From Vulcanimicrobiota bacterium (GTDB lineage Bacteria; Vulcanimicrobiota; Vulcanimicrobiia; Vulcanimicrobiales; Vulcanimicrobiaceae): a stretch of 64,000 nt of DNA. The stretch is taken from assembly GCA_963795855.1 (NCBI GenBank), contig CAWCIZ010000003.1, positions 832,001-896,000 on the forward strand. Reading direction: 5' to 3'. Position numbers and translations under genes: made by a program. The notes beneath the pieces are model-generated. The model was not told the origin of the DNA, searched no databases, and worked only from the letters and a program-made list of their open reading frames with translations. This document shows positions 7,445-28,203 of the stretch, piece after piece (the first letter of the stretch is position 1; every line of letters begins with the position of its first letter).

Positions 7445-8146
7445 CTACGCAATGACGCGTGCCGCCTCGGAGGCGTCCGTTTCGGCGTAGAAGCGATTGT
7501 GCGTTTCGGTCACGTGCGGCGCCCACGGATCGACTTGAGCGGCGCTTACTGGGAAGTGCACCGTCGGTCCGGCTGCATCCGCGTAACTCGATCCGTCGAA
7601 CGGCTCGAATTCGCGGCTCTCGCGATGCGCGACGACAAGAGACCCGACACTCTTCGCGGCCGCATTTGCCGCCTTGCGCAAGCCATCGTCCAAACGCGCG
7701 TCGCCCGCTAGCGTATCGTACAGTTTGATTGCTGGACGGTCGGCATGCCACGGCATGTCCGGCGTGGCCGCCGAGAAGCGTACCATGCCCTGCACCGACG
7801 CTGCATCCTCGCGGATAGCCGCAACTTCGGAGCGATCGTTTTTTCGCGCAGCGATGCCGTCGTTGAGCGCTTTAACCGATGATTCGACGCTGCGCATTTT
7901 CGCGCTGTCGAGATCCAGTACGTCAAAGGCGGCGGCAGGTCCCCACGTTTGCCCGTCTGCGCCGTATTTCTGATGCATCACGTCGCCGACGAGCGCTTTG
8001 CCCATGGCGTGCGAATCGCTCGCGTTCTTCGCGATCGCATCCGCGACATCGCTTGGCACGCCGGGCGACACCATCGTTTCGGGGCTGGCTGCCAAGTACT
8101 GCACGCCGGCATGTGAGAGCGCGTCGGCGAAGCCCAGCGAGGCCAT
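7445..8146 (-). pseudogene. C-terminal half of clostripain-like (C11) peptidase interrupted by island 1
   Basis: Begins MASLGFADALS...YLAASPETM, the segment that follows the C11 catalytic CL(M) motif; N-terminal half lies at 28725-29233. Confidence 0.85.
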
Positions 8147-8192
8147 ATTATACGAAGTACAAAGGAGTATATCATTTCGTCACGAAGGCGGC
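8147..8192 (+). repeat. Left terminal imperfect inverted repeat of island 1
   Basis: ATTATACGAAGTACAAA-GGAG-TATATCATTT...GAAGGCGGC. Confidence 0.8.
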
Positions 8193-8214
8193 GCGAAACT
8201 AGGAGGCGCGCGCG

Positions 8215-9361
8215 ATGCTGCGACTGGCCTTTACCTCGAGCGCTTTTCGGCTCCATGGCATAAGTCGACCGGACATTCCCGTCATTATCGATGACAGCGA
8301 CATGTCCATCGCGCGCATACCAACTCTATGGCTTGTGTACGTCGCTACAATCCCCGGTAAGACCCGCAGCCCAAGGACTTGGCTGGCGTATGGAACGGGA
8401 GTTGTCGATTGGTTGCGAGTTTGCGATGCAAACGGTTGGAGTTGGGAAACCGCTACGGAAGAGCAGGTGGCTGCATATCGAGACAATGCTATTTCGGAAG
8501 AGAGCAGACTTTGTCGAGCGAGTCCTGGATCCGAAGTCGATTAATCTTTATCTCACAAGTCTGTGCCCGCTTCTACAAGTGGTGCGAAGAACGCGGCTAC
8601 GTTAAGGAAAGCCCTTTCAAATATGTTCGCTCAAACCGCGGTAAGCACGGTTTGTTGGCACATATTAATTCCGAGCGCGATTCATCAAAGACTCCTAGTT
8701 GCGTTACCCGAAGTCAAAGGAAAAACTCCTCGATTCTACACCGTCGGCGAAAGACGAAAGATCCAGTCACTCATGGGAACCCGGGATAGATTGTTCATGC
8801 GATGGGCGCTTTATACCGGGATGAGGATCTTCGAGATCGTGATGCTGGCGTTGAGCGATCATCCCGCACCAGGATACGTACGCTTCTGGAAAATGGCGAA
8901 AATTAAACATTCTCGGGAAAGGCGGCTACAGGAGAGATGTTTGGGTTCCATCATTCATTTTGGATGAGACGTGGACCTATATACGGTTACATCGTTCAAA
9001 GATACTTTCGGAGTGCAAAGCGCGGGGTGGTAAAACCGGCGAATCGGCGCTCTGGCTGGGTCGTTGGGGAAGTAAGCTCACTGAAGCCGGCGCGAGAGTA
9101 GCTTTCAATGCAGCGCTTGAAGCAGCCGGTATTACCGACGGCGTGTTTCACGATTGCAGGCACACCTACGCTATTACCACTCTCGATCGCCTGATGTTGA
9201 AGTCTAGCGACCCGAAGGCGAAGTCGCGTAATCCCCTCGAGGCGTTGAAAAAATTGCTTGGGCACAAGCATCTTTCGTCGACCGCGATCTATCTGCAGGC
9301 GCGAGAACAGTACTTGGAAGACCTCACGGACGATGACATTGAGGCGCCCGACAGTGTCTAG
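8215..9361 (+). CDS. Tyrosine recombinase 1 of island 1 (frameshifted in this sequence)
   Basis: AGGAGG RBS; YTGMRIFE (R), GKGG (K), FHDCRHTYA (HxxR), LLGHKHLSSTAIY (H,Y). Confidence 0.88.
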
Positions 9362-11103
9362 GGCCCTAAAACGCCACAAGGCATTCGCCGTTAAACTTCC
9401 CGCCAAGGGCTATGATCATGCAACAACATGGGCTTTCCTGGATCCTCACACGGCAACACAATGCACATTTGATTTCAGCAGAATGGCACAAGAAGCTAGG
9501 TCCGATCGTGCCGGACCTCATGGATGCAGCAAAGCGCCTTGAAGGTCACCAAAACCGCTCCGTTAGGGGTCGGAGCGCTGTATTGAATTGGTTGTTTGAA
9601 TACCTCGTTAAAGCGAATTTAAAACCAAAAGCGACAGATCTCACCGATCAGATCCTTGTCGACGCAGTTAAGTCGCGAGGACTGAAAGGGCATGCGCCCA
9701 GCGTCGTCCACGGAAAGTTAAGAAGTATTGTAAATGAGGCACTGCGTTTACAAAACGTGCAGTTAAAAGACGATTTACGATCCCTTCGCCCCTGAGCGTT
9801 TAGCAGCACAACATAGTGAGAGTTTGTCGAGAGAACAACGCGAAGCAATCCTCCAGGCCGCAATGATTGACGTTAGGCGGATCTGGGATGAATTCGAGCG
9901 AGCGCGTTCGGCCGAGGCGACGAGTGCTATGACAGTCCGTCGCTAAAATTGCCACTGAAAATGGCGGCTTTCTTCCGATTATAGGCTATGGGAAAAATTA
10001 CAAGCGACTAAAGAAAACCAAGGCGATGCGCGCATTGTGGGCATTGAAGGCCCGCGAGCGCCGTGCAGGAAGACCCGCCGACGTTAGGACGTTTGATAGA
10101 TGGCTTTATGCCACCGTTGAATCACTTCTGCCGTTTCTCATAGTCATCGCATATAAGCTCGCGGGAAACGTGTATTCGCTTTTGGAGAGTAAGCGCGATT
10201 TGTTGCGTGACGTGGACGACGTTATCCGAGGATCGCGATGCGCAGTTAGTTTCTACAAACCTAGAGCACGCAGAATATTGACGCACATGCTTAATCCGGC
10301 GGGTCGATTCTCGGTTCCCAGCCTTATCAAACAAGTGCTTGCAATGACAGATCCTTTGGTCCCGCTCGTGCCGGAAGCGATGAAGAACCGGTTGTTTATT
10401 TGCTTTAACCGTGTTGGGAACAGCAAGGGAAAACCACAGACGCTCAAGTCGACGCCAGGCTCAATGCGCCGATGGTGCCAACGACATAATCTCATGAACA
10501 AAGACGGAACGCCGTTAACGTTCACTCTCGACATGTTGCGTCCGACGAAGATCAACGACGTTTACGAGGACTCCGGTGGGGATCTGCTTCTGGCGTACAA
10601 GGTAGCGAATCACAAGGTGCTCTCCACAACGTATGATTACCTGAAGGGTATACGCGCAGCCGATCTCGATCGAAAGTCGATAGCTGACGCTCAGGGGCAG
10701 ACTCTTTACAGCATCCACCGAACGACGCGAAAAACACTCCCGAGACGGATCGCAGAAATCAAAATCTCGTGAGGAAAGGGCCAGAGCTGTCGAGCGAGAC
10801 TGTCTTGATCCAACGGACCCACCAAGATACACGGAAAAAGACCTGTGCCCGGAGTGGATGTTCACACTCGCCGATCCGCACCTTGCTGTACCGAATGATC
10901 CGAAATATGTCGCGAATATAATACTTGATCGAGATGCGTTCCTTGAGGCACGTGAAAGGATCGACGCAACTCGTTTTGCTCGGTATTATGCGAACAAATT
11001 GCGGATCATCGATCAAGAAATTCTACCAAAATTATCCCCAGATGTAGTAAAAGAAGCCACAAAGATAGCGGCTGGTTTACCGCTGCGGATGGAGATATAC
11101 TAA
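9333..11103 (+). CDS. Tyrosine recombinase-like protein 2 of island 1 (degenerate active site; frameshifted)
   Basis: LAGNVYSLL, YKPRA, FTLDMLRPT, ANHKVLSTTYDY; C-terminal CLDP...C motif. Confidence 0.7.
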
Positions 11104-12931
11104 TGGACGCTCAAGTGCAAAGCGAAACTACGCGAGGTCCCGCGGTGTCTGCTCGGAGCTGTTTCAATGACGATGTTTGGTATCTGCCCAACGCTGTAGT
11201 TACATCAGCAAGTAATCATATTCATTGGAAGGTGCAACTCGGCGAAGGTCGATGTCTAACAGATCCAATACACGAGAAGATACTTTCCACGTGTAAACAG
11301 ATGCTGTACTGCATGCTTAAAGGCGATTACGGATTTTACAAGAACGCGCGCTGCCGCACCGTGTTTGGGACCTGGAGCGCCCTAAGGCCATTAGTGGTGT
11401 GGATGATTGCGCAAGGTCTGACCGCGTTTTCGGAGATGGATGAAAACCAAATAGCAGACTTACAAGGCAAAAGTCACGTCAAGTGGGTTGTCCGAGAGCC
11501 GCCAAGGCCGATTACTCTTCCCTTTAAAAGTGCTTGTGGCGCTGCGCGATAAGATTGAAGACCAACCTCCCATTAAGCCTCATGTAATGATGGAAATCCT
11601 GACGCTACCGTCCACGGCGCAAAACGAGTGCAAGACGCCTGCGATCCCAGACCATATTGCCATGCCGTTATTTCGAGAGGCGCTGGAATTCATTGAGGCA
11701 AATGCGGATTTTATTTGTGAAGTCTACGCGCAAGATTGGGAAAGCCGGCGTGTTCACTATCGGGCTACCGCAAAGGCTGGCATGACGCATGGCGCCGGCG
11801 CGTTGCGTGTGAGTCGCGAACACTTCGAAAAATATGCGTCATGCGACGTCATTCAGGCCGGTAGCCAGATCTATGCAATTCGAGAGATCTCGCAAGTGAA
11901 CGAAATGGTAACCCTACTGGAGACTGCCTGCTTTATCGTAGTGGCCGGGTTCGTTGGCATGCGCATTAGTGAGATCGGCTCATTAAAATCGGGTTGCCTT
12001 TCGGTCCAAAAGAGCAATCGCGGTCTAACATTACTTACCGTGCACGGCCTTCTTTTTAAGACTTCCAGAGAAGAAGAGGGTGTCCCGTGGCAGTGGGTCG
12101 CCGGTTGGGACGGGCCAGAAAATGTGGTCCGGAAAGCGATCGAAACGCTTGAGCGGCTTCGTCGCGCAGAAAAGTGTGAGCCAGCATCGAGTAGATATTT
12201 ATTTACCAGAAGTCACGGCCGCTTTGTGGATGGAGACGCGAATCCCCTGAAGAGCTCCTACTTTACTGCGCGAGTCAATAAATTTGCACGGCTTTATGAC
12301 ATTGAGCCGTGGCATTTTACGCCTCGCCAATTTCGACGCACCTTTGCACGGTGGGTAACGCGAAAGGACCCGAACGCGTTGCTCGCGCTTCGTCGTCACT
12401 TTGCTCATGTCTCGGTGCAAATGACGGAATTCTATTCATTCTGGGATAGTGACCTAGTCCAAGAAGTGTTAGACGCGGATATTGAGCAAGACTATGAAGC
12501 ATTGGACGAGATACTTGCCGCGGATCATTTGGCGGGCCAAAAGGGCGAAGAAATTCTGTCTCGCAACTACCGATTCCGTGGTGTCGCCGGAGAGGAAGCG
12601 CGGGAAGTCTATATCCGCGCCGAACTTGCGCGTCCGGCCGATGAACAGCTGATCATTATGCGTCACGATTACGGATATTGCATTTACTTAGACTGACAAG
12701 GCGGCCTGCGGCGGTGAACGCTGGCGCATCGGTATTGACACGTGTATGGGATGTTCAAACGCCGTATTTACGAAGCAGCATGTGCCTTTCTTAGTGCGCC
12801 AGAAGGAAGCGCGGCGTTCGATTATAGGCGCGCCAATTTTTAAGACGCTTTCAGTCCGAGCTCAGACCGACGCACAAAATGGACTTGAGCGCGTAGAAAA
12901 GCTGCTGATCGATCTTACGGGGGCGGCCTAG
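11103..12931 (+). CDS. Tyrosine recombinase 3 of island 1 (frameshifted)
   Basis: FVGMRISEIGSL, LFKT, TPRQFRRTFA, HFAHVSVQMTEFY, Cys-rich tail GYC...C...CMGCSN. Confidence 0.85.
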
Positions 12932-13309
12932 TGACGAAGAAAGAGCAAACGTTGCGCAATCTCAACGCGGCTTTGTCGCGCCTAATGAAAGGAAAACCAA
13001 CGAATGAACACAATCAGAAAAACAAGAGCCAGGTTTCTGTAGCGGCGGTGGCCCGAGAGGCAGGCGTCAAGCCCGTCACTGTTTTTAGATACCCATCTGT
13101 ATGCGATCGTATAAGGGAATTGAAAAAGCGATCGAAGAGTGCCAAGAGAACAGCAACCCGCGTCGCGAATGCGGCGGCTGAAAATCGTGAGCTAGAAGGC
13201 AGATTCGGTGTCTGATCGATCGAAATATGGAATTAACGGTTAGTCTTTCAAAATATGAGCTGTGGCGTCCGATCCGAATATCGCGGATATCGTCGGAGCC
13301 CGTCTATAG
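12931..13309 (+). CDS. Small HTH/coiled-coil accessory protein (TnpC-like)
   Basis: VSVAAVAREAGVKPVTVFRYP HTH followed by a coiled coil; fourth gene of the module; 3' end frameshifted. Confidence 0.65.
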
Positions 13310-13384
13310 TGCGACCCGACAAGTTGCACAGCGGATACGCGAACATTAGTCAGTGCAGACGAAAGCATAGCAGCCGTGCGTGAT

Positions 13385-14153
13385 TTGAGCGTCGGAATTC
13401 TCATAATCGGTTCCCTCTTATGGGACCCGGACAAAAAGCGCGTTAATTGGCGCAGATTCCCGTCTAAATATGAACGCTCAACGATATGTATGGACTCATA
13501 CCCGTTATGGGCGAACTTCTAAGGGGCGAGAATGCACCCATACGATGGTGTTCTCGACGTCGGCCGCGCAGAGCACCGCCGTCGTCGTACCCTGTCAAAA
13601 CGCGTTGAGCTCGTTCGATGATTTACGCCAAGAATCTCAACAACTCGCAGTTGCCGAAGGGCTTGGCGAAGGAAAAACTTGGAAGGACTTCGGAGCGGTT
13701 GGCATTCTTTCGAACCCGTGTTCACCCGAGGCGCAAACGCTGCTAGAGCCGTGGTCGAAGTATTTCCGGGAGCATTTCAACATTGACTGCAAAGTAACAA
13801 GGGTGAAGGGCGCCGGCGAGGAGCCGAGTCTACAGAGTGATGGCGTGCTTAACGTTGCATGGCCAAAGTGCATACGAACGCAGGAGTCAAGCGCATACGA
13901 TATTCTGCTCGCCACGGCCAATGCGCCAAACCTAAACGGAGACGATTCCTATCCAACGGCGGAGCAGATTGCGGACCGGTTCACCCAGCAGCAGTACATC
14001 ACATATTTCTCTGAAAACGTGAAGGCAGATATTTTCACCGCCGACGATCCCGAGATTTGGTCTAACGTCACAACATGGAATCCGGATTGGATATCTGTTG
14101 AAGAGCGCGTCTGCATTGATGCGGCAATTACAGCTCGGCAATCCGGCGCCTAG
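13385..14153 (+). CDS. Hypothetical protein, possibly gamma-glutamylcyclotransferase-like fold
   Basis: N-terminus in another frame reads SVGILIIGSLLWD, then RYGRTS...TMVF; frameshift near 13460. Confidence 0.5.
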
Positions 14154-14273
14154 TATCGCCGAGCATTCTTTCGCCCCGTAGCGACCAAAAACCACTAGGA
14201 GAGGCGGATGAGGCGGTTTCCTAGGAGTTGGTGAAGTCATCTACCTCTGTCCGCTGCAAAGAAAGCGTTGCAT

Positions 14274-15267
14274 ATGAATTGGGTGTTTCAATCGAATCCG
14301 AAATTGTTTGACCTTTCGAAGGCGCTCGACGAGCGATCTGCGCACACACGACATTGGGCGATGAATCAACTGCGCTCGGAAGTCACGCCCGGTGACCGTG
14401 TCTACTTCTGGCGCTCCGGCGTGGATGCGGCTCTCGTTGCCATCGGCAGAATTACTTCGCCGGTGTACGAACGTGAAGGCAACCCGTTTGGTCGGTGGGC
14501 CATCGACGTCGAATATGAGTACAAGATTCAACCTACTCTAAGCCGTGCTGAGGTCCTCGCCGACGATACGCTGACGAACGTGCGTGTTTTCAAAGGAGCA
14601 CAAGGCACCAACTTTAAGATCGATGCAACTCAAGCGGCTGCGCTCGACAGACTTACTGATCAGCGGCGTGTTCGCATTGAGGGCCCTGTGGGACCACCGC
14701 CCCCCGACAGATCCTATGCGCGCGGTGACGGAAGCTCTTCGTCATGTGCATACTACAAACGTTCGCGCGATCTCAGGTTTCATGGCCGACATGGACCCAA
14801 CGCATTTTGAATGGCTGGTCGCTGCCGTCTTTGTGCGCGCTGGATATACCGACGTTGAAGTTACGCCGCCCAGTGGTGATCGCGGCATCGACGTTAAAGC
14901 AACGGCACCGGGAGTTGTCCCGATTCGCGTCTTTATTCAGGCCAAACGTAAACCTTCCGTCGGCAGCCCCACTGTAACGCAACTACGTGGTTCTTGTCCG
15001 TCTGGCTACAGTGGCATACTCGTAACGTCAGGCACTTTTACGGACGAAGCATACGACGAAGCAGCAGACAAGACGAAACATAATCAAATCACCTTAATCA
15101 GCGGGAAAGAATTCGCGGAGCTCCTGTTGGACAATGGGATCGGCACGCGACGGATACCATTGGAAACCCACTCGTTAGCGCTGGATGAAATAACGCTCCC
15201 GTTCTTACAGGAAATTGTCCAAGTGCCGGCAGAAGCGACTGCTGACGCAACGGCTCTGCGTCCATAG
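14274..15267 (+). CDS. EVE domain - Mrr-family restriction endonuclease (frameshift near 14715)
   Basis: EVE-like WVFQSNP...W...PGDRVYFWRSG; Mrr catalytic domain MDPTHFEWLVA...SGDRGIDV...IQAKR...GILVTSGTFT. Confidence 0.8.
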
Positions 15268-15431
15268 CAAGAAAGTAGCAACTCTAGATGGGCAGATTCC
15301 AGACGATCTCCGATCTAGGCAAACCGTCATGTTTTTGAACTGGCCAACGGCGGGTTCGTGAACTCTGCAATTGAAGCGGCGGCTCCAACGGTCATCGCTC
15401 GTGCTCATTGCCGAATCTCTGTCAGATCAGC

Positions 15432-16356
15432 TTAAACATCGTGCAGTTCTTCGATCAAAGCAAGGTCGCCGATTAAACTTCCGGCCGGCGATACCGTTGC
15501 CGTATGCAGGCTGTTGAACGGTGCACGCTCCGGATCGCCAGGCGATGCATAGCGCAGCGTATTGTACGCGGCTTCGAACTGAGGATCGTTCATGATGCCA
15601 GCTTTATCTGCTAGATGGAAAATCGGAGCGGCGCCGGTTGTGGACATGAGGCCACCCGATTCGTCAAAGTCCAGCAATCCGAGGCCGCGGATATGTGCGA
15701 GGTCGGCAAAAGTGTAGTGCAATTCGCCGAAGCGCAACGAACTATGGCGGAACGACGACAGCAATGCGTCGCGGGAATCGTCGGGATAGAGGCGCGTCAA
15801 TAGCTCCTCTCGCGCGCGGGCTTCCCGCGACGAAACCCGAATTGGTCCCGTCTGCAAAAAGCTAATGAGGGCGAGCAGTCGCACCTGGCGTGGGGTGAGA
15901 TCGCGTATCCGCTCGATGGCAATGCGAGCGGCAAGCGCTTCGAGCGATTCGTCGGGCGCTTTCAGCCGCTCGACGACAACGTCCGCTAAAACGTGAAGCT
16001 GCAAGCCATCGTCAGTGTCCATCGCTGTCGCAAAGGCCTCTTGCAGGGCGCCGGTTACTTCGGGGAGTGCGAATAACACATCGAGTCGCGATTCGTCGAA
16101 TTGACGCGCGTGCTCGAGTGCATCCACGCGCGCATCCAGGAGTACAACGAATCTTCGCAATCGTTCTTGCGCCGTTTCCAAATCGGAGCCGAAAATGAGA
16201 TCATTGGCGCCGCCGCCGAAGCGTTGGCCCAAGACGCGCACGAGCGCAGGTCGCGCGCGGCGCGCGATCGTGCCAAGGCCAGCATCAAGTGCCTTGCTCG
16301 CGAATATAATCGACGGCAAGCGAGACGATTTCCGGTGGAACCGGCGGCAGGCTCAT
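15432..16356 (-). CDS. Hypothetical helical protein
   Basis: ~300-aa ORF; start inferred across a probable frameshift. Confidence 0.55.
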
Positions 16357-16588
16357 GGCGTAGTCGATTCACCTTCAGGGTGGTAACTTACTCACGTTCG
16401 CTCAACTCTGCAGCTCATTATTGGGGACCCGGACCTGAACGGGCCGCTTCCGGTATAATAGCGTCAAGTCGCGGTTCCATCACATCTCGAAGTCTTGAAA
16501 GCGCATCGGCCGCCCAGTTTGCCAATTCGGCGATCTGTGTTGCATCGTTCCGGTTAATGTTCTCCCGGACTAGCGTCAGTAACCTTGT

Positions 16589-16852
16589 TCATTTCGAGTC
16601 TTCGAAAAGGTTCGCGATCTCGTCATTCGACGCGTCGAAATCGTCCGCGATTTGTATGTTTTTTCCATCGACGCCCAATTCACGCTTCCGATGCGCCTTA
16701 TCTGCTTCGCCTTTTGGGGACTTGGAATCTTCGGGCAAATCCCACAATTCGCGCTCGCTCTTGACGTACGCGTCAGAGTTTCCGTAGACGCCTTTCAATT
16801 CACCGGCAAATGACTTGCCAACCCGACGCTGCGTTTTATCGTCTTCCTTCAT
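16589..16852 (-). CDS. Small protein made of two antitoxin-tail-like segments
   Basis: GELKGVYGNSDAYVKSERELWD and RELGVDGKNIQIADDFDA...IANLFE. Confidence 0.55.
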   Translation of the reverse strand: MKEDDKTQRRVGKSFAGELKGVYGNSDAYVKSERELWDLPEDSKSPKGEADKAHRKRELGVDGKNIQIADDFDASNDEIANLFEDSK

Positions 16853-17215
16853 CCTATTGCGACCCGTCTGCGGTTGTGATGCGACAATAATCAGCGGCTG
16901 GAACGTCCCAGCATGGCAAGAAAATTAATTCCTATAACTGAGTTCGTCCGCGGTCGGAACCCGGTCGCGCGTTGGCTGTCCATCTCGCCTGAGGACGCCT
17001 TCCTCGTTCCAAATGCCTTCAACCCGGTCGCGTACGCCGGAGGTCGTGTGGCATAGGTCGTTCCATATTTCGCTGGGTGTCAGGAGATCACGTATTCCGA
17101 CAACTAGCTCTGAAAATCTCATGCCTGCTATTACCTCGTCTGATATGCATGGTTTCGCCGTTCCCCGACCGAGCCGGTTCGACGCCGTTTCCGCCGATGA
17201 AGGCCCTGGCCTGGC

Positions 17216-17440
17216 CTAGTTTGGTCGTAGTAACCAGTCTTCGAGCTCTTCGTACAGTGTGGGCCACAGCGCCGTGCCGATCTTCCCGATTGCGGTTCCC
17301 TCGTCGGAATACATGCGGGTCAGCAGCTCGCTTAGCATCTCGTTCATAGGAGCTGCAGTACCCGCAACAGCGCCAGACGGGACATCGCGGCCGGCCGCAC
17401 GACGATTAACCATTGAATCCCCGCCACGGTTGTTCCGCAT
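17216..17440 (-). CDS. Small hypothetical protein
   Basis: 74-aa ORF co-oriented with neighbouring small ORFs. Confidence 0.35.
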   Translation of the reverse strand: MRNNRGGDSMVNRRAAGRDVPSGAVAGTAAPMNEMLSELLTRMYSDEGTAIGKIGTALWPTLYEELEDWLLRPN

Positions 17441-17512
17441 GGTTAGTCATTGTCCATGTGTCAACGCGAATTTCGGCTTCTAGAAGTAGTAATCCCAAAC
17501 GGAGCATCGGCC

Positions 17513-17710
17513 CTACTGCGCGCGCCGCTGATCAGCGGCACGGTCCAAACACTCTCGTGCCCAATTAGGTTCATCACGCACGTCGTCGTGCAAGCGCTCG
17601 AGTTCAAGATCTGCCCCGTCAATGGGTGATGAGCGAAAAAAATCAAACAAGTTAGCGTAAGCGTGCCCGGGTTCGTTCCTAATTTCCGATTGTTGCGATT
17701 CGTCGTTCAA
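17513..17710 (-). CDS. Small protein with a Phd/VapB antitoxin-tail-like segment
   Basis: NLFDFFRSSPIDGADLELERLHDDVRD; GAGGTG RBS before the TTG start. Confidence 0.55.
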   Translation of the reverse strand: MNDESQQSEIRNEPGHAYANLFDFFRSSPIDGADLELERLHDDVRDEPNWARECLDRAADQRRAQ

Positions 17711-17753
17711 TTTTTGTCACCTCACATTTACGTGCTTATGCGGTCTGGCCTTT

Positions 17754-17993
17754 TCATCGTCTAACTTCGTGCAGCAGCTTCAGAAATGCCACGTAGGCCC
17801 GCTGTTCCTGTTTGCATGCACGAGACAATGCGCGAGACCATTGAAAAGCGGTTAAAAAGGCAACCGAAACGCCGGCAAGCATGACGCCCCAATGTGGTAG
17901 CAGTCGCGCAGTGGCGCACTCATAACCTAAAAGTAGAATCGCCAAGTTCGTGACGGCGTAGATCGGAAACATGGGTCGAAACGGAGCTTTCAT
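17754..17993 (-). CDS. Small 2-TM membrane protein
   Basis: Two hydrophobic segments; closely coupled to upstream ORF. Confidence 0.5.
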   Translation of the reverse strand: MKAPFRPMFPIYAVTNLAILLLGYECATARLLPHWGVMLAGVSVAFLTAFQWSRALSRACKQEQRAYVAFLKLLHEVRR

Positions 17994-17999
17994 TGCGAG

Positions 18000-18296
18000 T
18001 CACCTTTCGGACGCTCTGAGGCGCAAAGGCATTCCGCTCGACCGGCGTAGTTTTACCGCTCGCTGGATCTCGTATGAAACGATACTTGCATAGCGCGACA
18101 GCGCTTGTCGTTGCTCCGGCACGGACCACGCGTCGATGAGGCGTGACACTTCGGCTGACTTCGCAAATACGTATCGAATGTGCCCATCGCTGAGCAGTTT
18201 CCGGTTTAACAGCTTCTGTCGATTAAACAAAAGCCATGATGCCAGCTTAAGGTTCTCAACAGCGACCGTCTTGAATCCCCTGTCATTCCAAGGCAC
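18000..18296 (-). CDS. Small basic hypothetical protein (DUF5659-like, phage/MGE type)
   Basis: NLKLASWLL...YVF pattern; divergent from the HTH gene. Confidence 0.45.
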   Translation of the reverse strand: MPWNDRGFKTVAVENLKLASWLLFNRQKLLNRKLLSDGHIRYVFAKSAEVSRLIDAWSVPEQRQALSRYASIVSYEIQRAVKLRRSSGMPLRLRASER

Positions 18297-18375
18297 TTAG
18301 AACGTTCCCCCGATGGAGCCCCGAGCTAGTGCCTTGCGCTGGATTTCCCCAGGCCGGTGAATTGGGGCGTTATTA

Positions 18376-18393
18376 CACGCCATATATGGCGTG
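18376..18393. promoter_or_regulatory. Perfect 18-bp palindrome, candidate operator
   Basis: CACGCCATATATGGCGTG between the divergent DUF5659-like and Xre genes. Confidence 0.6.
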
Positions 18394-18651
18394 GTGCATC
18401 CCGAGTTCCTTCTGTACGCTCGCCTGGTGGCGGACCACCAGTACAAGCGGGCTCTCAAACGTCTAGCCGCCAACATTCGGAAGCGGCGACGAGAGCTCGG
18501 CCTAACGCAGGAAGACGTTGCTCATGCGGCCGACATGGCGGTTCGACATTTTCAAAAGCTCAAGGACGCGGACGTTAACGTCACGCTGCGGACGATGGCG
18601 AAAGTTGCGCGTGCGTTGAAAAGCGAACTACGCGAGTGTTCTAGCCCTTGA
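18391..18651 (+). CDS. Xre/C-protein-like HTH regulator
   Basis: LAANIRKRRRELGLTQEDVA...NVTLRTMAKVARAL; true start may be slightly downstream. Confidence 0.8.
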   Translation: MVHPEFLLYARLVADHQYKRALKRLAANIRKRRRELGLTQEDVAHAADMAVRHFQKLKDADVNVTLRTMAKVARALKSELRECSSP

Positions 18652-23145: not shown

Positions 23146-24215
23146 GTGAGCATGAGCGGGCGTGATGGTCTGTACCTTGCGGACCTCTTTGCGGGAGCCG
23201 GTGGGATTACTGAGGGCTTTCGCCGGGCCGGGTTCACTCCGGTGGCCGCGGTTGAGTTTGACCGCTGGGCGGCACAAACGTACGCGGCGAACTTCGGCGA
23301 CCACGTGCTCGCGTGCCCGATCGAAGACGTCGTTGTCGATCATCGCGACGGTATGCTCACATGGAGCGGCCGAAACGTCGCCGGCGAACCATTAAGTTTT
23401 GAAACGCCCGAAATTGACGTGCTGGTCGGTGGGCCGCCCTGTCAAGGTTTTTCTCCGCTCGGGCGCATGAACGATTGGGATTACGATGATCCCCGGAACA
23501 AACTCTGGAAGCACTACGTACGAATACTCGATACCCTCCAACCCAAGGTCTTCGTGATCGAGAATGTGCCCGAAATACTGAAGTCGGCGGAGTTTGATCG
23601 GCTTCGTAAACACGTAAAACGTCTTGGGCACGGATACGATCTCGCTTACGGCGTGCTCAATGCCGCCTTTTTCGGCGTGCCACAAACCCGCAAGCGCGCA
23701 ATCATCATTGGCAGTCGTATCGGCGCGCCCACTCTACCGCCCGAAATGTCGAGCGCATGACAGTGCGGGACGCTATCAGCGATCTACCGCTCAAAACCCA
23801 ACGGCGAAAATTGGCATATTGGCCGCAACCCACTTCCCATGTCGGTCGAACGATATAAATGCGTACCGGAAGGCGGCAATCGCTTCGATCTGATGGAAAA
23901 GCGCCCCGATCTTACGCCGAATTGTTGGAAAAAGAAAAAGACTGGTAGCACGGATGTATTCGGACGCATGAGGTGGGACGAGCCGGCACCTACCATCCGC
24001 ACGGAATTCTTTAAGCCCGAAAAGGGCCGATACTTACACCCACAAGCTCACCGCCCGATCACGATTCGAGAAGCGGCGCGCCTTCAGACCTTTCCCGACG
24101 AGTTTATCTTCGCCGGGTCCAACGTGCAGGTCGCAAAGCAGATAGGAAATGCCGTCCCCGTAAAACTTGCCACCGCGATTGCGCGTCACGTGCAATCATT
24201 GCTTGGTCGCCGTGT
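23146..24215 (+). CDS. dcm: C5-cytosine DNA methyltransferase (frameshift near 23750)
   Basis: DLFAGAGG, GGPPCQGFS, ENV, PQTRKR, REAARLQTFPD, QIGNAVP. Confidence 0.93.
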
Positions 24216-24833
24216 CAAGAAACAAAAGAGAAACATCAAGCAAACAGCAGCAGCGCCTAAACCGCGCATAAGCGATCGAGTACGCCTGCTCGATTTTCTG
24301 ATGGCGCATCCCGACCAAATTTTTGACAACGAGTCATTGCGAAGGATGCTTGGGGAAGGAACGAACAGACAGTTGGACTCGTCGGCTTCGCTCGCTTCGA
24401 GAGGCGCAGTATGGTGGCTATACGGTTCTCAGTCACCTTGATCGCAAGGAACTTAAGCCAGGTCAATACATTTTCCCAAAACAACCGCGACGCGAAGCAA
24501 AGAAGGGACCGCGCATATCGGGGAGGGTGCGCGGTGAGGTGCTGCACCGTGACGCGTATACGTGCCAGGCTTGCGGCCTTGCTCGTGGCGAGCGTTACGA
24601 CGACGGCCGCGCGGTCAAGTCTACATGTAGCACACAATCAGGCGCATTCTCAGGGCGGAAAGCCAACCGTGGAGAATTGCTTTACATTGTGTTCGAGATG
24701 CAATGAAGCGGAATCCGATATCGGTCCGGATCGACCTGTCCTTTCAAAAACCATGGCTCAGGTGCGCCGACTTCCACGCCACGAGCAGCAACAGATCTTC
24801 AGTTTTCTACTCTCCGTGTTCAAAGATGAATAA
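24216..24833 (+). CDS. wHTH-HNH endonuclease (frameshifted; possibly fused to the MTase)
   Basis: WTRRLRSLRE...LKPGQY, RDAYTCQACG, LHVAH...GG...ENCFTLCSRCN. Confidence 0.75.
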
Positions 24834-26127: not shown

Positions 26128-28203
26128 ATGGCGGGCGATAAAACACCTAAGGATAGCGGCACCGGTGGTCAACCCTTAAACGAGCTACAACAACGCGAGG
26201 CTGGCGGTGACAGTCCGGGAGCCCATCTCGATTTTCACGGGCGCATCATAGAACATCTCGGCCTACAGATGTACCAAAGCCCGACGGCCGCTATCGCAGA
26301 ACTTGTTTCGAACGCGTGGGACGCCATTCTACAAAGGTACAAATCACGCTACCCGACACGCTCGGCGACGATGCCACGATCGTGATCAAAGATTTCGGGA
26401 ACGGAATGACGCTTCAGGAGATAAGAGAGCACTACCTCAAGGTAGGCCTTAAATCGACGCGGATCCAATCCTGACGAACGCAGCCCGCTGCTTGGTCGCG
26501 CAATACTTGGAAGAAAAGGCATTGGAAAATTTGCAGGCTTCGGCATTGCGCGCAAAATCATAGTCGACACGATTAGTCGGAATACGGGTGAGCACACGAA
26601 ATTCGAGCTCTGATTATGATCGAATTCGCGGCGCAGGCGATGAATACGTCAATATCGCTCCCCTTGAGATACCCGGAGCTGAATACGAAGGGCCCGACCA
26701 ATCCCGTAAAGAGCAACACGGTACTACGATTACTCTTGCGGATTTCAGCATCTCCCGACGACCTCCCGGAGACCAGATGCGTAACAGCATGTCGCGGCGC
26801 TTTAGCTTCGGCGCGACCATTTCTGATTTCGAAATATTTATAGACGACGTGCCGTACTTGCGGATATCGATTCTGACGGCGTTCAGTTTAGCTTTCCACG
26901 GGACTACGAAGAATCTGAGCGCCCCTCAACTTTGGTTCGCATCGACGGCGAATGGGGTGTGGAAAGACTCTCCGATGGCAACGATATTAAATGGCGTTAC
27001 CGGTTTTACACCGACACAATAAGCGAAAAGGAGCTCGCCGGCGTTGCTGTCTTTACGTCCGGTAAGGTTGCACAGATGCCGTTCCTTTTCAATCTTGCCG
27101 GTGGCCTAGGCGGTCAGCACGGAGTCGCCTACATGGCGGGAAGAGTGGAGGCGGACTTTCTAGACCATCTTCCGCGGGACATCATTGCGCCCGAGCGTCA
27201 ACGAATCGATTGGGAGGCGCAGGAGGCTTCCGTACTGCTCGAATGGGGACAAAGCCGAACCAAAGAACTGTTGCGTATTTGGCATGATCGACGCGGTGAA
27301 AGGCGTCGTCAGCGTTTAGCATCACGAATGGCAACAATAGAGAGCGAGCTCGCGTCAATGCAAGGACGTGAGCGTCAGCCAATCGACAACATTGTGAATA
27401 ACCTCGCGCGCATGGAGAGCATAACGGATGCGCAATTCCTTGACACGGCGCGCTCGCTGGTTGTCGCTTGGAAAGCAGGTCGTCTCAAGGATTTGATCGA
27501 GAAAATAGGCGATGCTGAAGCACTTGACGAGGCTCAAATGCTTCAGATACTCTTGGAGGCAAACGTCTTAACTGATCTCCAAATGGCAGAGGTCGTCCGT
27601 ACCAAGATAAACATTGTTCGCGAGTGGCGCAGGCGAGTGGAGCGGCGCGACGTCGAAACTTCTCTTCGCGACTATATTGCTGAACATCCCTTTTTGATAT
27701 CGCCGCGCTGGAACACGTTTGCCATTGAACGACGCGTAAATACGATAATATCGGATGCCGCCGCAGAATCTGGAATAGAGACAGACCCGGCGTACCGGGG
27801 CAGAATCGACCTCATTATGTCAAGTAATGACACGCTGCTCGTGATCGAGTTCATGCGCCCAGGTGTGACACTCGATCGCGATCACGTCCAGCGCTTTCAA
27901 ACGTATATTGCGGAAATTAAACCCGCATTGGCTTCGAACAATCTACTTCCGCTCAAGAATGTTATTGGCTATCTCGTGGCCGACAACACAAATCGACGAC
28001 CGGCAGTAACACAATTAATTGCCGATATGTTGAAGAACGAGCAATACGTCGTTACATGGAAGACGCTGTTAGATATGGCGGAAGCGGAATGGTATGATCA
28101 GATGGAGATATTAAAGGACCGGTCAGGTGATGAAACGCGTATTCAAGACATTGCAAGGGATATAGAAAGACCTACATTGCCAAATGGTCTTGACGACGTA
28201 TAG
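26128..28203 (+). CDS. MORC/HSP90-like GHKL ATPase with C-terminal PD-(D/E)xK-like domain (frameshifted)
   Basis: AELVSNAWDA, DFGNGMT, GRKGIGKFAGFG; C-terminal HPFLI...RIDL...VIEFMRP. Confidence 0.85.

Follow-up and report, generated by a model that had tools for sequence, protein, structure and literature searches.

Two small open reading frames (ORFs) on a mobile island of an uncultured, soil-type Vulcanimicrobiota bacterium, here named ORF87 and ORF65, encode proteins that resemble the C-terminal tails of VapB antitoxins. Comparison with the sequences of genuine antitoxins shows that ORF87 is a fusion of the tails of two different VapB families and that ORF65 carries the tail of a third. 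The window, meaning the whole 64-kb stretch of DNA that was analysed (G000:C3:832001-896000), belongs to a 3.06-Mb genome assembled in six contigs and 86% complete. A preliminary description made from this stretch had singled out both frames and quoted strings within them, and both are present with these strings on the minus strand, ORF87 at 16589-16852 and ORF65 at 17513-17710. That observation is confirmed, and the interpretation built on it is partly supported: we infer that ORF87 and ORF65 may neutralise several host or competitor toxins. To the reading that they are trans-acting, polyvalent mimics that neutralise VapC toxins and serve their island we assign a probability of roughly 0.55.

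ORF87 comprises 87 amino acids and begins with ATG. Its tail 1 (amino acids 13-38, KSFAGELKGVYGNSDAYVKSERELWD; 16739-16816, minus strand) aligns with the C-terminal tail found in AbrB/MazE-type VapB antitoxins, hereafter class B, and keeps the invariant class B columns G17, G21, G24, E33, R34 and W37. Tail 2 (amino acids 55-86, RKRELGVDGKNIQIADDFDASNDEIANLFEDS; 16595-16690, minus strand) corresponds to the C-terminal tail in Phd/YefM-type VapB antitoxins (class A), with every invariant column of the class A tail retained (R57, L59, G60, D62, F72, I79 and F83). ORF65, of 65 amino acids and with a TTG start, has a single tail (amino acids 19-47, ANLFDFFRSSPIDGADLELERLHDDVRDE; 17570-17656, minus strand), which resembles the C-terminal tail in a second family of Phd/YefM-type VapB antitoxins (class C). 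The best tail matches for ORF87 amino acids 55-86 and ORF65 amino acids 19-47 reach approximately 60-67% identity with the conserved positions kept, and tails with up to 63% identity to tail 2 of ORF87 occur in other genera. The three family assignments made in the preliminary description are borne out by tail hidden Markov models (HMMs), by alignments, and by Pfam matches and PIN-type partners of the matched antitoxins. So is the proposed joining of tails from different antitoxin families, which is seen in ORF87 (AbrB/MazE-type at amino acids 13-38, Phd/YefM-type at 55-86).

Neither protein contains a recognisable DNA-binding domain, as the preliminary description had also stated. For ORF87 and ORF65 nothing scores over the cut-off in Pfam or NCBIfam and nothing is found in PHROGs; the sole hint is a match of NF050009 (TA_VapB) to ORF87 residues 44-75, with an E value of 0.024 and 15.1 bits against a cut-off of 60. 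By Pfam, NCBIfam and alignment, the Phd/YefM domain (PF02604) is absent from both ORFs and the SpoVT/AbrB swapped-hairpin domain (PF04014) is absent from ORF87. In the alignments both ORFs begin past these domains: the start of ORF87 coincides with the end of the AbrB domain of real antitoxins, and the start of ORF65 with the end of their Phd domain. In the ESM Atlas the best score for ORF87 is 0.84, and DUF2281 is the closest of the named clusters with 0.76, which we treat as a lead only.

The nature of the tails is apparent from the proteins they match. A search with ORF87 across 401 phylum genomes at a threshold of E ≤ 0.05 gave matches in 55, with full-length matches only in its own genome and in one other (G369). 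Among the 28 best partial matches, 18 cover residues ~50-86, ten cover residues ~2-52 and none spans both, and all 28 form the ends of antitoxin-type ORFs. Class A consists of ORFs of ~78 amino acids beginning MKTVNMHEAK..., the last ~30 residues of which match ORF87 residues ~50-86. Class B ORFs are mostly ~77-108 amino acids long with an AbrB-like core, show the pattern ...RKRNQLTLP...RPVRRSYAG..GVYG...YV..ER..W followed by a stop, and match ORF87 residues ~2-52 with their last ~30 residues. In 24 of the 28 cases a crude motif test picked up a PIN-like start shortly downstream of the matched antitoxin; by eye, such a start is also present at two further loci (L012 and L036) and absent at the other two (L026 and L032). 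For ORF65, the whole minus-strand frame 16418-17713, with stops written as X, was searched against the same genomes, and the ORF65 part was matched in six. The four of these loci that were opened (L047, L054, L055 and L060) all hold Phd-type antitoxins ending ...NLFDFFRSSPLVGADLDLQRLPGAIREVDL (class C), each followed by a PIN gene, intact in two cases and split in two.

A Pfam analysis of 27 of these proteins agrees with the class assignments. PhdYeFM_antitox is matched by six of six class A proteins (four over the cut-off) and by all four class C proteins (all over the cut-off), and MazE_antitoxin is matched by six of six class B proteins, all over the cut-off. Altogether, 16 of 16 antitoxins match a Phd or MazE/AbrB domain, 14 of them over the cut-off, and each of the 11 downstream proteins tested matches PIN over the cut-off. 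The antitoxin matches cover only the N-terminal part of the proteins, or the core in the longer ORFs, leaving the tails outside. Searches of PDB sequences with three alignments (A3, A4 and A5) likewise returned N-terminal Phd or AbrB domains only and never the tails. The N-terminal profile of class A weakly matches PDB chain 3dbo_A (E 0.015), which we take to be VapB5 of M. tuberculosis.

To gauge these resemblances against chance, tail HMMs were built from genuine antitoxins only, with ORF87, ORF65 and their homologues in G369 left out, and were run against 58,561 stop-to-stop ORFs (at least 25 amino acids, six frames) of the genome that carries the window. The tail-A HMM identifies the host VapB (6.5e-17) and the frame of ORF87 (1.2e-12), the next best value being 1.1; the tail-B HMM finds the frame of ORF87 only (3.1e-9; next best 0.4), and the tail-C HMM the frame of ORF65 only (6.8e-11; next best 0.64). 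When full-length class B and class C antitoxins served as tblastn queries, ORF87 and ORF65 were the only matches in the genome (E 5e-6 to 2e-4), and a reciprocal tblastn of the L047 antitoxin returned the ORF65 locus alone (E 5.8e-6). None of 500 shuffles of ORF87 or of ORF65 reached the real blastp scores of 40.0 and 41.2 bits. The antitoxins used in the HMMs and in the shuffle test had themselves been retrieved through similarity to ORF87 or ORF65, so that these scores are flattered. Such selection does not explain the C-terminal position of the matches in the antitoxins or the PIN-type neighbours of nearly all of them. By these sequence tests, the resemblance of ORF87 and ORF65 to antitoxin tails is real and above chance.

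Several other matches were set aside. A second match (L005) proved to be a chance similarity within the C-terminus of a 469-amino-acid ORF. Six weaker matches from the phylum, three of which seemingly covered much of both tails, comprised four low-complexity frames and two decayed ordinary antitoxins (L076 and L077), and no further two-tail protein was found among these six.

Both ORFs are conserved in a second genus. The other genome with a full-length match, G369, is a Candidatus Eremiobacteraeota metagenome-assembled genome from another genus of the same family, and its locus (L004) was compared with the island over window positions 7473-18635 and L004 positions 8240-16693. The cassette of small genes that includes ORF87 and ORF65 (window 16596-18635) is shared at 81.7% nucleotide identity and an integrase module (7473-13259) at 93.3%, and the flanking helicase gene is only 73.6% identical. 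That the island blocks are far closer to L004 than the core flank indicates an island younger than the split between the hosts, that is, one horizontally acquired. A search for the cassette DNA in 41 genomes, comprising the host's own and those of 40 relatives, found it in the own genome only. The ORF87 homologue at L004 (P0002) has 84 amino acids and 74-76% identity, with differences gathered in the N-terminus and linker, and the ORF65 homologue (L004:9145-9345) has 66 amino acids. The TTG start of ORF65 is also conserved there, as is a putative Shine-Dalgarno motif, GAGGTGA, 6 nucleotides upstream of it (17717-17723, minus strand).

The changes between the two genera are those of coding sequences. 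Pairwise codon alignment with L004, which represents a single sequence pair, yields a ratio of nonsynonymous to synonymous substitution rates (dN/dS) of 0.31 for the whole of ORF87, 0.22 for tail 1, 0.47 for the linker and 0.26 for tail 2, compared with 1.04 and 1.22 in the two other frames. For ORF65 the ratio is 0.41 overall and 0.28 for amino acids 19-65, and shifted frames of the two ORFs range from 0.78 to 1.66. These values support the view that ORF87 and ORF65 are coding and appear to be under purifying selection. Both are intact in the two genera, even though indels occur in neighbouring L004 frames. Decayed remnants lacking conservation would have told against the original proposal; the tails have ratios of 0.22-0.28 in this one pair.

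The same tail types also recur in a metagenome protein. A profile of ORF87 and P0002 was searched against 1.84 billion representative proteins with a cut-off of E ≤ 0.001, giving six matches, one of which is the protein itself. Another, P0005, is a protein of 142 amino acids with no Pfam domain, encoded on a metagenome contig of 1091 bases. It carries tail A, then tail B and then a weaker C-like segment, with A and B reversed relative to ORF87. In BLASTP, P0005 aligns with ORF87 as two distinct segments whose order is swapped (8e-9 and 2e-8), and with ORF65 as one short, weaker segment (E 0.013). P0005 appears to be an unrelated, independently assembled three-tail protein, which strengthens the case and suggests that the architecture is selected. 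Random decay is hard to reconcile with the occurrence of the same three tail types in another order.

Of the other matches, P0006, with 48 amino acids on a contig of 1037 bases, consists of a single tail A and is possibly a fragment. P0008/P0009 (Calothrix sp. FACHB-156, MBD2342226.1) is a cyanobacterial protein of 184 amino acids with two tandem DUF2281-type tails at its end (...GIWKGKVKIADDFDD...), and its N-terminal part gives only a faint SMODS hint (E 0.05); tails are thus multiplied in this protein too. P0004 (3832 amino acids) and P0007 (805 amino acids) are long repeat proteins whose scores were summed over 17 and 8 repeats, and are not relatives. Homologous-protein searches found only P0005 itself among 48 candidates when P0005 was the query, and none among two candidates when ORF65 was. 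A scan of metagenomes with P0005 gave six loci, five of which hold ordinary antitoxins; the sixth, at the end of a contig, is a C-terminal fragment.

The likely targets of such tails would be PIN-domain toxins. Across the genome, the PIN family PF01850 is matched twice (C3:667424-667783 and C2:409806-410123), each time outside the window. By Pfam and NCBIfam there is no PIN (VapC) gene in the 64-kb window, in line with what had been noted at the outset, and the ORFs downstream of ORF87 and ORF65 are not PIN. A single intact class A pair is present in the host, composed of a 78-amino-acid Phd-type VapB and a 129-amino-acid PIN protein. In G369 there are one Phd-PIN pair, whose PIN gene is split, and a class A-like pair that has decayed. 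Members of all three classes occur here and there across the host family, in which ORF87 was matched in 49 of 296 genomes at E ≤ 0.05.

A structure prediction for ORF87 together with the host class A VapC scored 0.54 (0.54, 0.56 and 0.54 in three runs), and the best of three controls scored 0.02. Contacts are reproduced between runs to at least 95%, with a partner pLDDT of at least 52 (~53 for ORF87). Of 157 solved complexes, 116 reach the mark applied to these scores, as do two of 215 mismatched pairs, and scores of 0.60 or less at the mark are seen for only 18 of the 157 solved complexes and for both of the mismatches that pass. Since VapBC complexes have already been solved, the pass may reflect likeness to these rather than binding. 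The complex prediction with host VapC that the preliminary description had called for is a weak pass with the one matching toxin, and lends the proposed interaction weak support.

The low confidence of the ORF87 chain is as expected for a largely disordered protein, and the C-terminal regions of antitoxins are described as disordered until bound and as protease-sensitive (PMC4803016). Both points would suit an indirect action, in which the tails soak up the protease that degrades VapB, or re-tune transcription of the host vapBC genes through the toxin:antitoxin ratio (conditional cooperativity). We regard this as improbable, given that the positions kept in ORF87 and ORF65 are those conserved among genuine tails: contact with a toxin would preserve these, and a degradation signal needs less. 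An explanation of another kind than those named in this report is, in our estimate, equally improbable.

Under the reading that ORF87 and ORF65 are VapC-neutralising mimics, their action would follow from the build of type II antitoxins, which are modular, with an N-terminal domain that usually binds DNA and a C-terminal part that binds the toxin (PMC4803016). Owing to this division, bare tails would plug VapC without contacting an operator. They would wrap VapC toxins and block them while leaving the vapBC operators untouched, with the single 87-residue ORF87 covering two toxin families and ORF87 and ORF65 together covering three. The island would be protected when the host VapBC fires, for example after entry, induction or loss of antitoxin. 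The tails may also cancel the addiction modules of competing elements, in an anti-addiction or counter-defence role.

A number of observations weigh against this reading. Of the three target toxin families, the host genome yielded just one; no toxin or antitoxin of class B or class C was found in the 86%-complete assembly, which leaves two of the three tails without a visible target there. Between the tail of the host class A VapB and tail 2 of ORF87, identity is only 47%. The complex prediction passes weakly, the HMM and shuffle scores are flattered, and the dN/dS values derive from a single pairwise comparison. No clear Shine-Dalgarno motif precedes ORF87. In L004, the frames of the divergent XRE-family regulator gene and of two small cassette genes (ORF98 and ORF65b) are disturbed by indels. 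The tail-only architecture, for which the preliminary description proposed a check of other elements, does occur in the L004 cassette and in P0005, and it is rare: the full form was found in two of 401 phylum genomes and in one 142-amino-acid protein among 1.84 billion representatives, and a scan of viral contigs with alignment A1 found it in none of 46 stretches. Lastly, genes lie in pieces at 14268-15267 (EVE/Mrr), 15432-16588 (LPO_1073-like), 23146-24441 (Dcm) and 26128-28203 (phrog_6203-like), and these splits may reflect decay of the island or indels in a long-read assembly.

Split genes, rarity and the lack of a clear Shine-Dalgarno motif would all be in keeping with ORF87 and ORF65 being non-functional debris, that is, leftovers of vapBC loci whose 5′ parts and toxin genes were deleted in a decaying island and whose frames remain open by chance or recency. 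Decayed antitoxin or toxin fragments are indeed present in relatives (L076, L077, L066, L055 and L060). However, an in-frame fusion of the tails of two unrelated families, with a start at the domain boundary, demands several precise deletions, and the three tail types recur in a different order in the unrelated P0005. Moreover, the tails have dN/dS values of 0.22-0.28 compared with ~1 in other frames, with divergence mostly in the linker and N-termini, and both ORFs have stayed intact in two genera despite the indels in neighbouring L004 frames. On this balance we consider debris unlikely, though the foremost of the alternatives.

The genomic setting is that of a mobile element, as had been proposed. 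The stretch around the cassette, at ~7.5-29 kb of the window, has a G+C content of 0.51-0.58 compared with ~0.60-0.64 in the window flanks. A tyrosine integrase gene (11488-12696, plus strand; PF00589 and the integrase family phrog_216) lies within the block common to L004, there at 93% nucleotide identity. An XRE-family helix-turn-helix (HTH) regulator gene (18391-18651, plus strand; PF01381 with E 4.3e-6, and PHROG transcriptional regulators) is divergent from the cassette. The integrase, the phage-type regulators and island blocks that are closer to L004 than the core flank place ORF87 and ORF65 on a mobile element. Relative to L004 the island is a mosaic, with an extra 3.3-kb insert in the window (13260-16595) between the shared blocks that contains a 227-amino-acid ORF, EVE/Mrr and an LPO_1073-like gene.

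Other genes of the island include EVE and Mrr-type nuclease domains in two overlapping frames, the LPO_1073-like gene, an HNH gene, an ImmA/IrrE-HTH regulator and a Dcm/Vsr/NgoMIV restriction-modification set with its methylase in two pieces. The LPO_1073-like gene has an N-terminal piece separated from its body, its relatives being 330-540 amino acids long; the Dcm methylase is formed by two ORFs and the phrog_6203-like gene by three, and the core genes of the window look whole. In L004 (8230-8484), the helix-turn-helix of the XRE regulator is replaced by out-of-frame sequence between two compensating one-nucleotide indels, which is either a true loss of the regulator or an assembly error. 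No tRNA gene was found in the island stretch, and a scan for promoters and terminators yielded no more than shuffled sequences did.

All small minus-strand ORFs within 16418-17713 share one frame, with seven stops between them, and we considered whether they are remains of one long gene, broken or recoded. This was rejected: all three kinds of stop codon occur among the seven, the L004 homologues are in different frames, and the relatives of the separate pieces are unrelated. The shared frame looks like a coincidence.

The cassette consists of six small minus-strand ORFs facing the divergent XRE gene, in the order ORF98, ORF79, ORF65, ORF74, ORF65b and ORF87, and this co-directional block is probably an operon. 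The preliminary description spoke of a cluster of tail mimics, which is too broad, for only two of the six are antitoxin-like. The other four, ORF98 (18000-18296), ORF79 (17754-17993), ORF74 (17216-17440) and ORF65b (16925-17122), provide context only; against antitoxins their blastp scores are reached by 33-373 of 500 shuffles, with 373 for ORF98 and 230 for ORF74. ORF98, the first gene of the cassette, weakly matches DUF5659 (PF18903, E 0.031). Its ESM Atlas score is 0.90 with 209 shared features, and its look-alike clusters are mostly viral; as a lead only, this fits a phage-derived early operon. ORF79 is a small protein that is hydrophobic by reading of its sequence. In the same single pair with L004, ORF98 has the lowest dN/dS of the cassette (0.12, its most conserved gene), followed by ORF79 and ORF65b (0.23 each) and ORF74 (0.37).

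ORF74 belongs to a family of small stand-alone ORFs in the phylum. Eight relatives were opened (L043-L046, L049, L050, L061 and L063; E down to 9e-8 for one genome), all in unrelated contexts. Six are stand-alone ORFs of 43-70 amino acids ending ...W(L/I)(L/I)R.N, one terminates a frame of 129 amino acids, and one copy is interrupted by in-frame stops. A 43-amino-acid relative of ORF65b with 52% identity (L041:1492-1623) adjoins an integrase gene in another genome, directly following it, and an ImmA-like gene lies ~0.55 kb beyond the relative. ORF65b may be a small protein typical of such islands; its ATG start is not kept in L004 owing to a one-nucleotide indel.

The presence of a separate XRE regulator and of several small cassette proteins under purifying selection raises another alternative, namely that ORF87 and ORF65 are the cognate antitoxins of an unrecognised toxin encoded by ORF79, ORF98, ORF74 or ORF65b, with the XRE protein as the regulator. 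Three-component toxin-antitoxin (TA) systems in which the antitoxin has no DNA-binding domain do exist, examples being paaR-paaA-parE and omega-epsilon-zeta. The latter is listed in Table 1 of PMC4803016. Unlike these systems, the cassette holds no recognisable toxin domain: neither PIN nor any other was found in its ORFs with Pfam, NCBIfam and PHROGs, although a novel toxin is possible. The partners of the tail families are PIN proteins in 11 of 11 cases tested, and three different tails for one toxin would not be parsimonious. In addition, no tail ORFs lie near the relatives of ORF74 or near the one relative of ORF65b that was examined. We judge this the least probable of the alternatives, slightly below indirect action.

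How far ORF87 and ORF65 depart from known antitoxins can be seen by comparison with their closest counterparts. Phd/YefM-type VapB proteins (PF02604, with a PIN partner) share their family tails with ORF87 amino acids 55-86 and ORF65 amino acids 19-47, whereas the two ORFs are without the Phd/YefM domain and without an adjacent PIN gene, and one of the tails, that in ORF87, is fused to the tail of another antitoxin superfamily. AbrB/MazE-type VapB proteins (SpoVT/AbrB, PF04014) share the C-terminal tail ...SYAG..GVYG...YV..ER..W with ORF87 amino acids 13-38, but in ORF87 this tail is internal and followed by a second one, with no swapped-hairpin domain and no toxin gene. By predicted domain content, ORF87 and ORF65 keep one of three VapB features, the tail, and lack the DNA-binding domain and the cognate toxin. 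In crystals listed in Table 1 of PMC4803016, C-terminal fragments alone occupy the toxin, as for CcdA 37-72 with CcdB and VapB5 53-86 with VapC5. These fragments show that a bare tail, like those of ORF87 and ORF65, can occupy a toxin; unlike the two ORFs, they are laboratory constructs or the ordered parts of crystals and not natural genes.

The two proteins have functional parallels as well. Chromosomal antitoxins are described as cancelling plasmid addiction (Saavedra De Bast et al. 2008, cited in PMC4803016), and such anti-addiction modules likewise provide an integrated antitoxin function that lets a cell survive the loss of another element, or attack by its toxin. They differ in being complete toxin-antitoxin pairs, whereas ORF87 and ORF65 are toxin-less, lack a DNA-binding domain and are predicted to be multi-specific.

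Mobile elements, phages included, also carry orphan antitoxins or antitoxin mimics, of which Dmd of T4 is an example. According to published accounts, orphan antitoxins are enriched in the leading regions of plasmids, with a proposed role against host or competitor TA systems (PMC11541004), and T4-like phages have orphan antitoxin-like enzymes against DarTG1 (PMC11825919). Further cases are an antitoxin mimic of phage ICP1 (10.1101/2023.12.14.571748), the pseudo-ToxI RNA repeats of phage PhiTE (PMC3475682) and a cyanophage with three antitoxin genes (PMC9964418). Like ORF87 and ORF65, these are toxin-less, antitoxin-derived genes on mobile elements; going by their published descriptions, each is instead a whole gene of its own, an enzyme, an unrelated protein or a set of RNA repeats. 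ORF87 and ORF65 fit among the orphan antitoxins of mobile elements, with a new build that is tail-only and concatenated across families. In the open-access literature, as covered by titles and the beginnings of abstracts with the terms used, no tail-only, fused, tandem or polyvalent protein antitoxin was found. The general concept of orphan antitoxins and mimics on mobile elements and phages is in print, and only the tail-only, concatenated form looks undescribed, so that the earlier suggestion of an undescribed system would apply to this form and not to the concept.

TA modules are now viewed both as defences against phages and plasmids and as addiction devices, and mobile elements answer them with orphan antitoxins or mimics, one per system. 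We tentatively suggest, at a little short of even odds, a broader principle in which mobile elements concatenate the tails of unrelated antitoxins into a tiny, regulator-free protein that disarms many VapC toxins, with ORF87, ORF65 and P0005 as its first members. If this is true, it would constitute a compact, multi-specific counter-measure, and antitoxin tails would be portable modules that are shuffled like beads. It would also provide a search rule for hidden anti-TA genes, which should show at least two antitoxin-tail matches, no DNA-binding domain and no toxin. For this poorly known, uncultured phylum, the tails would be ready-made minimal peptides with which the specificity between VapB and VapC may be probed.

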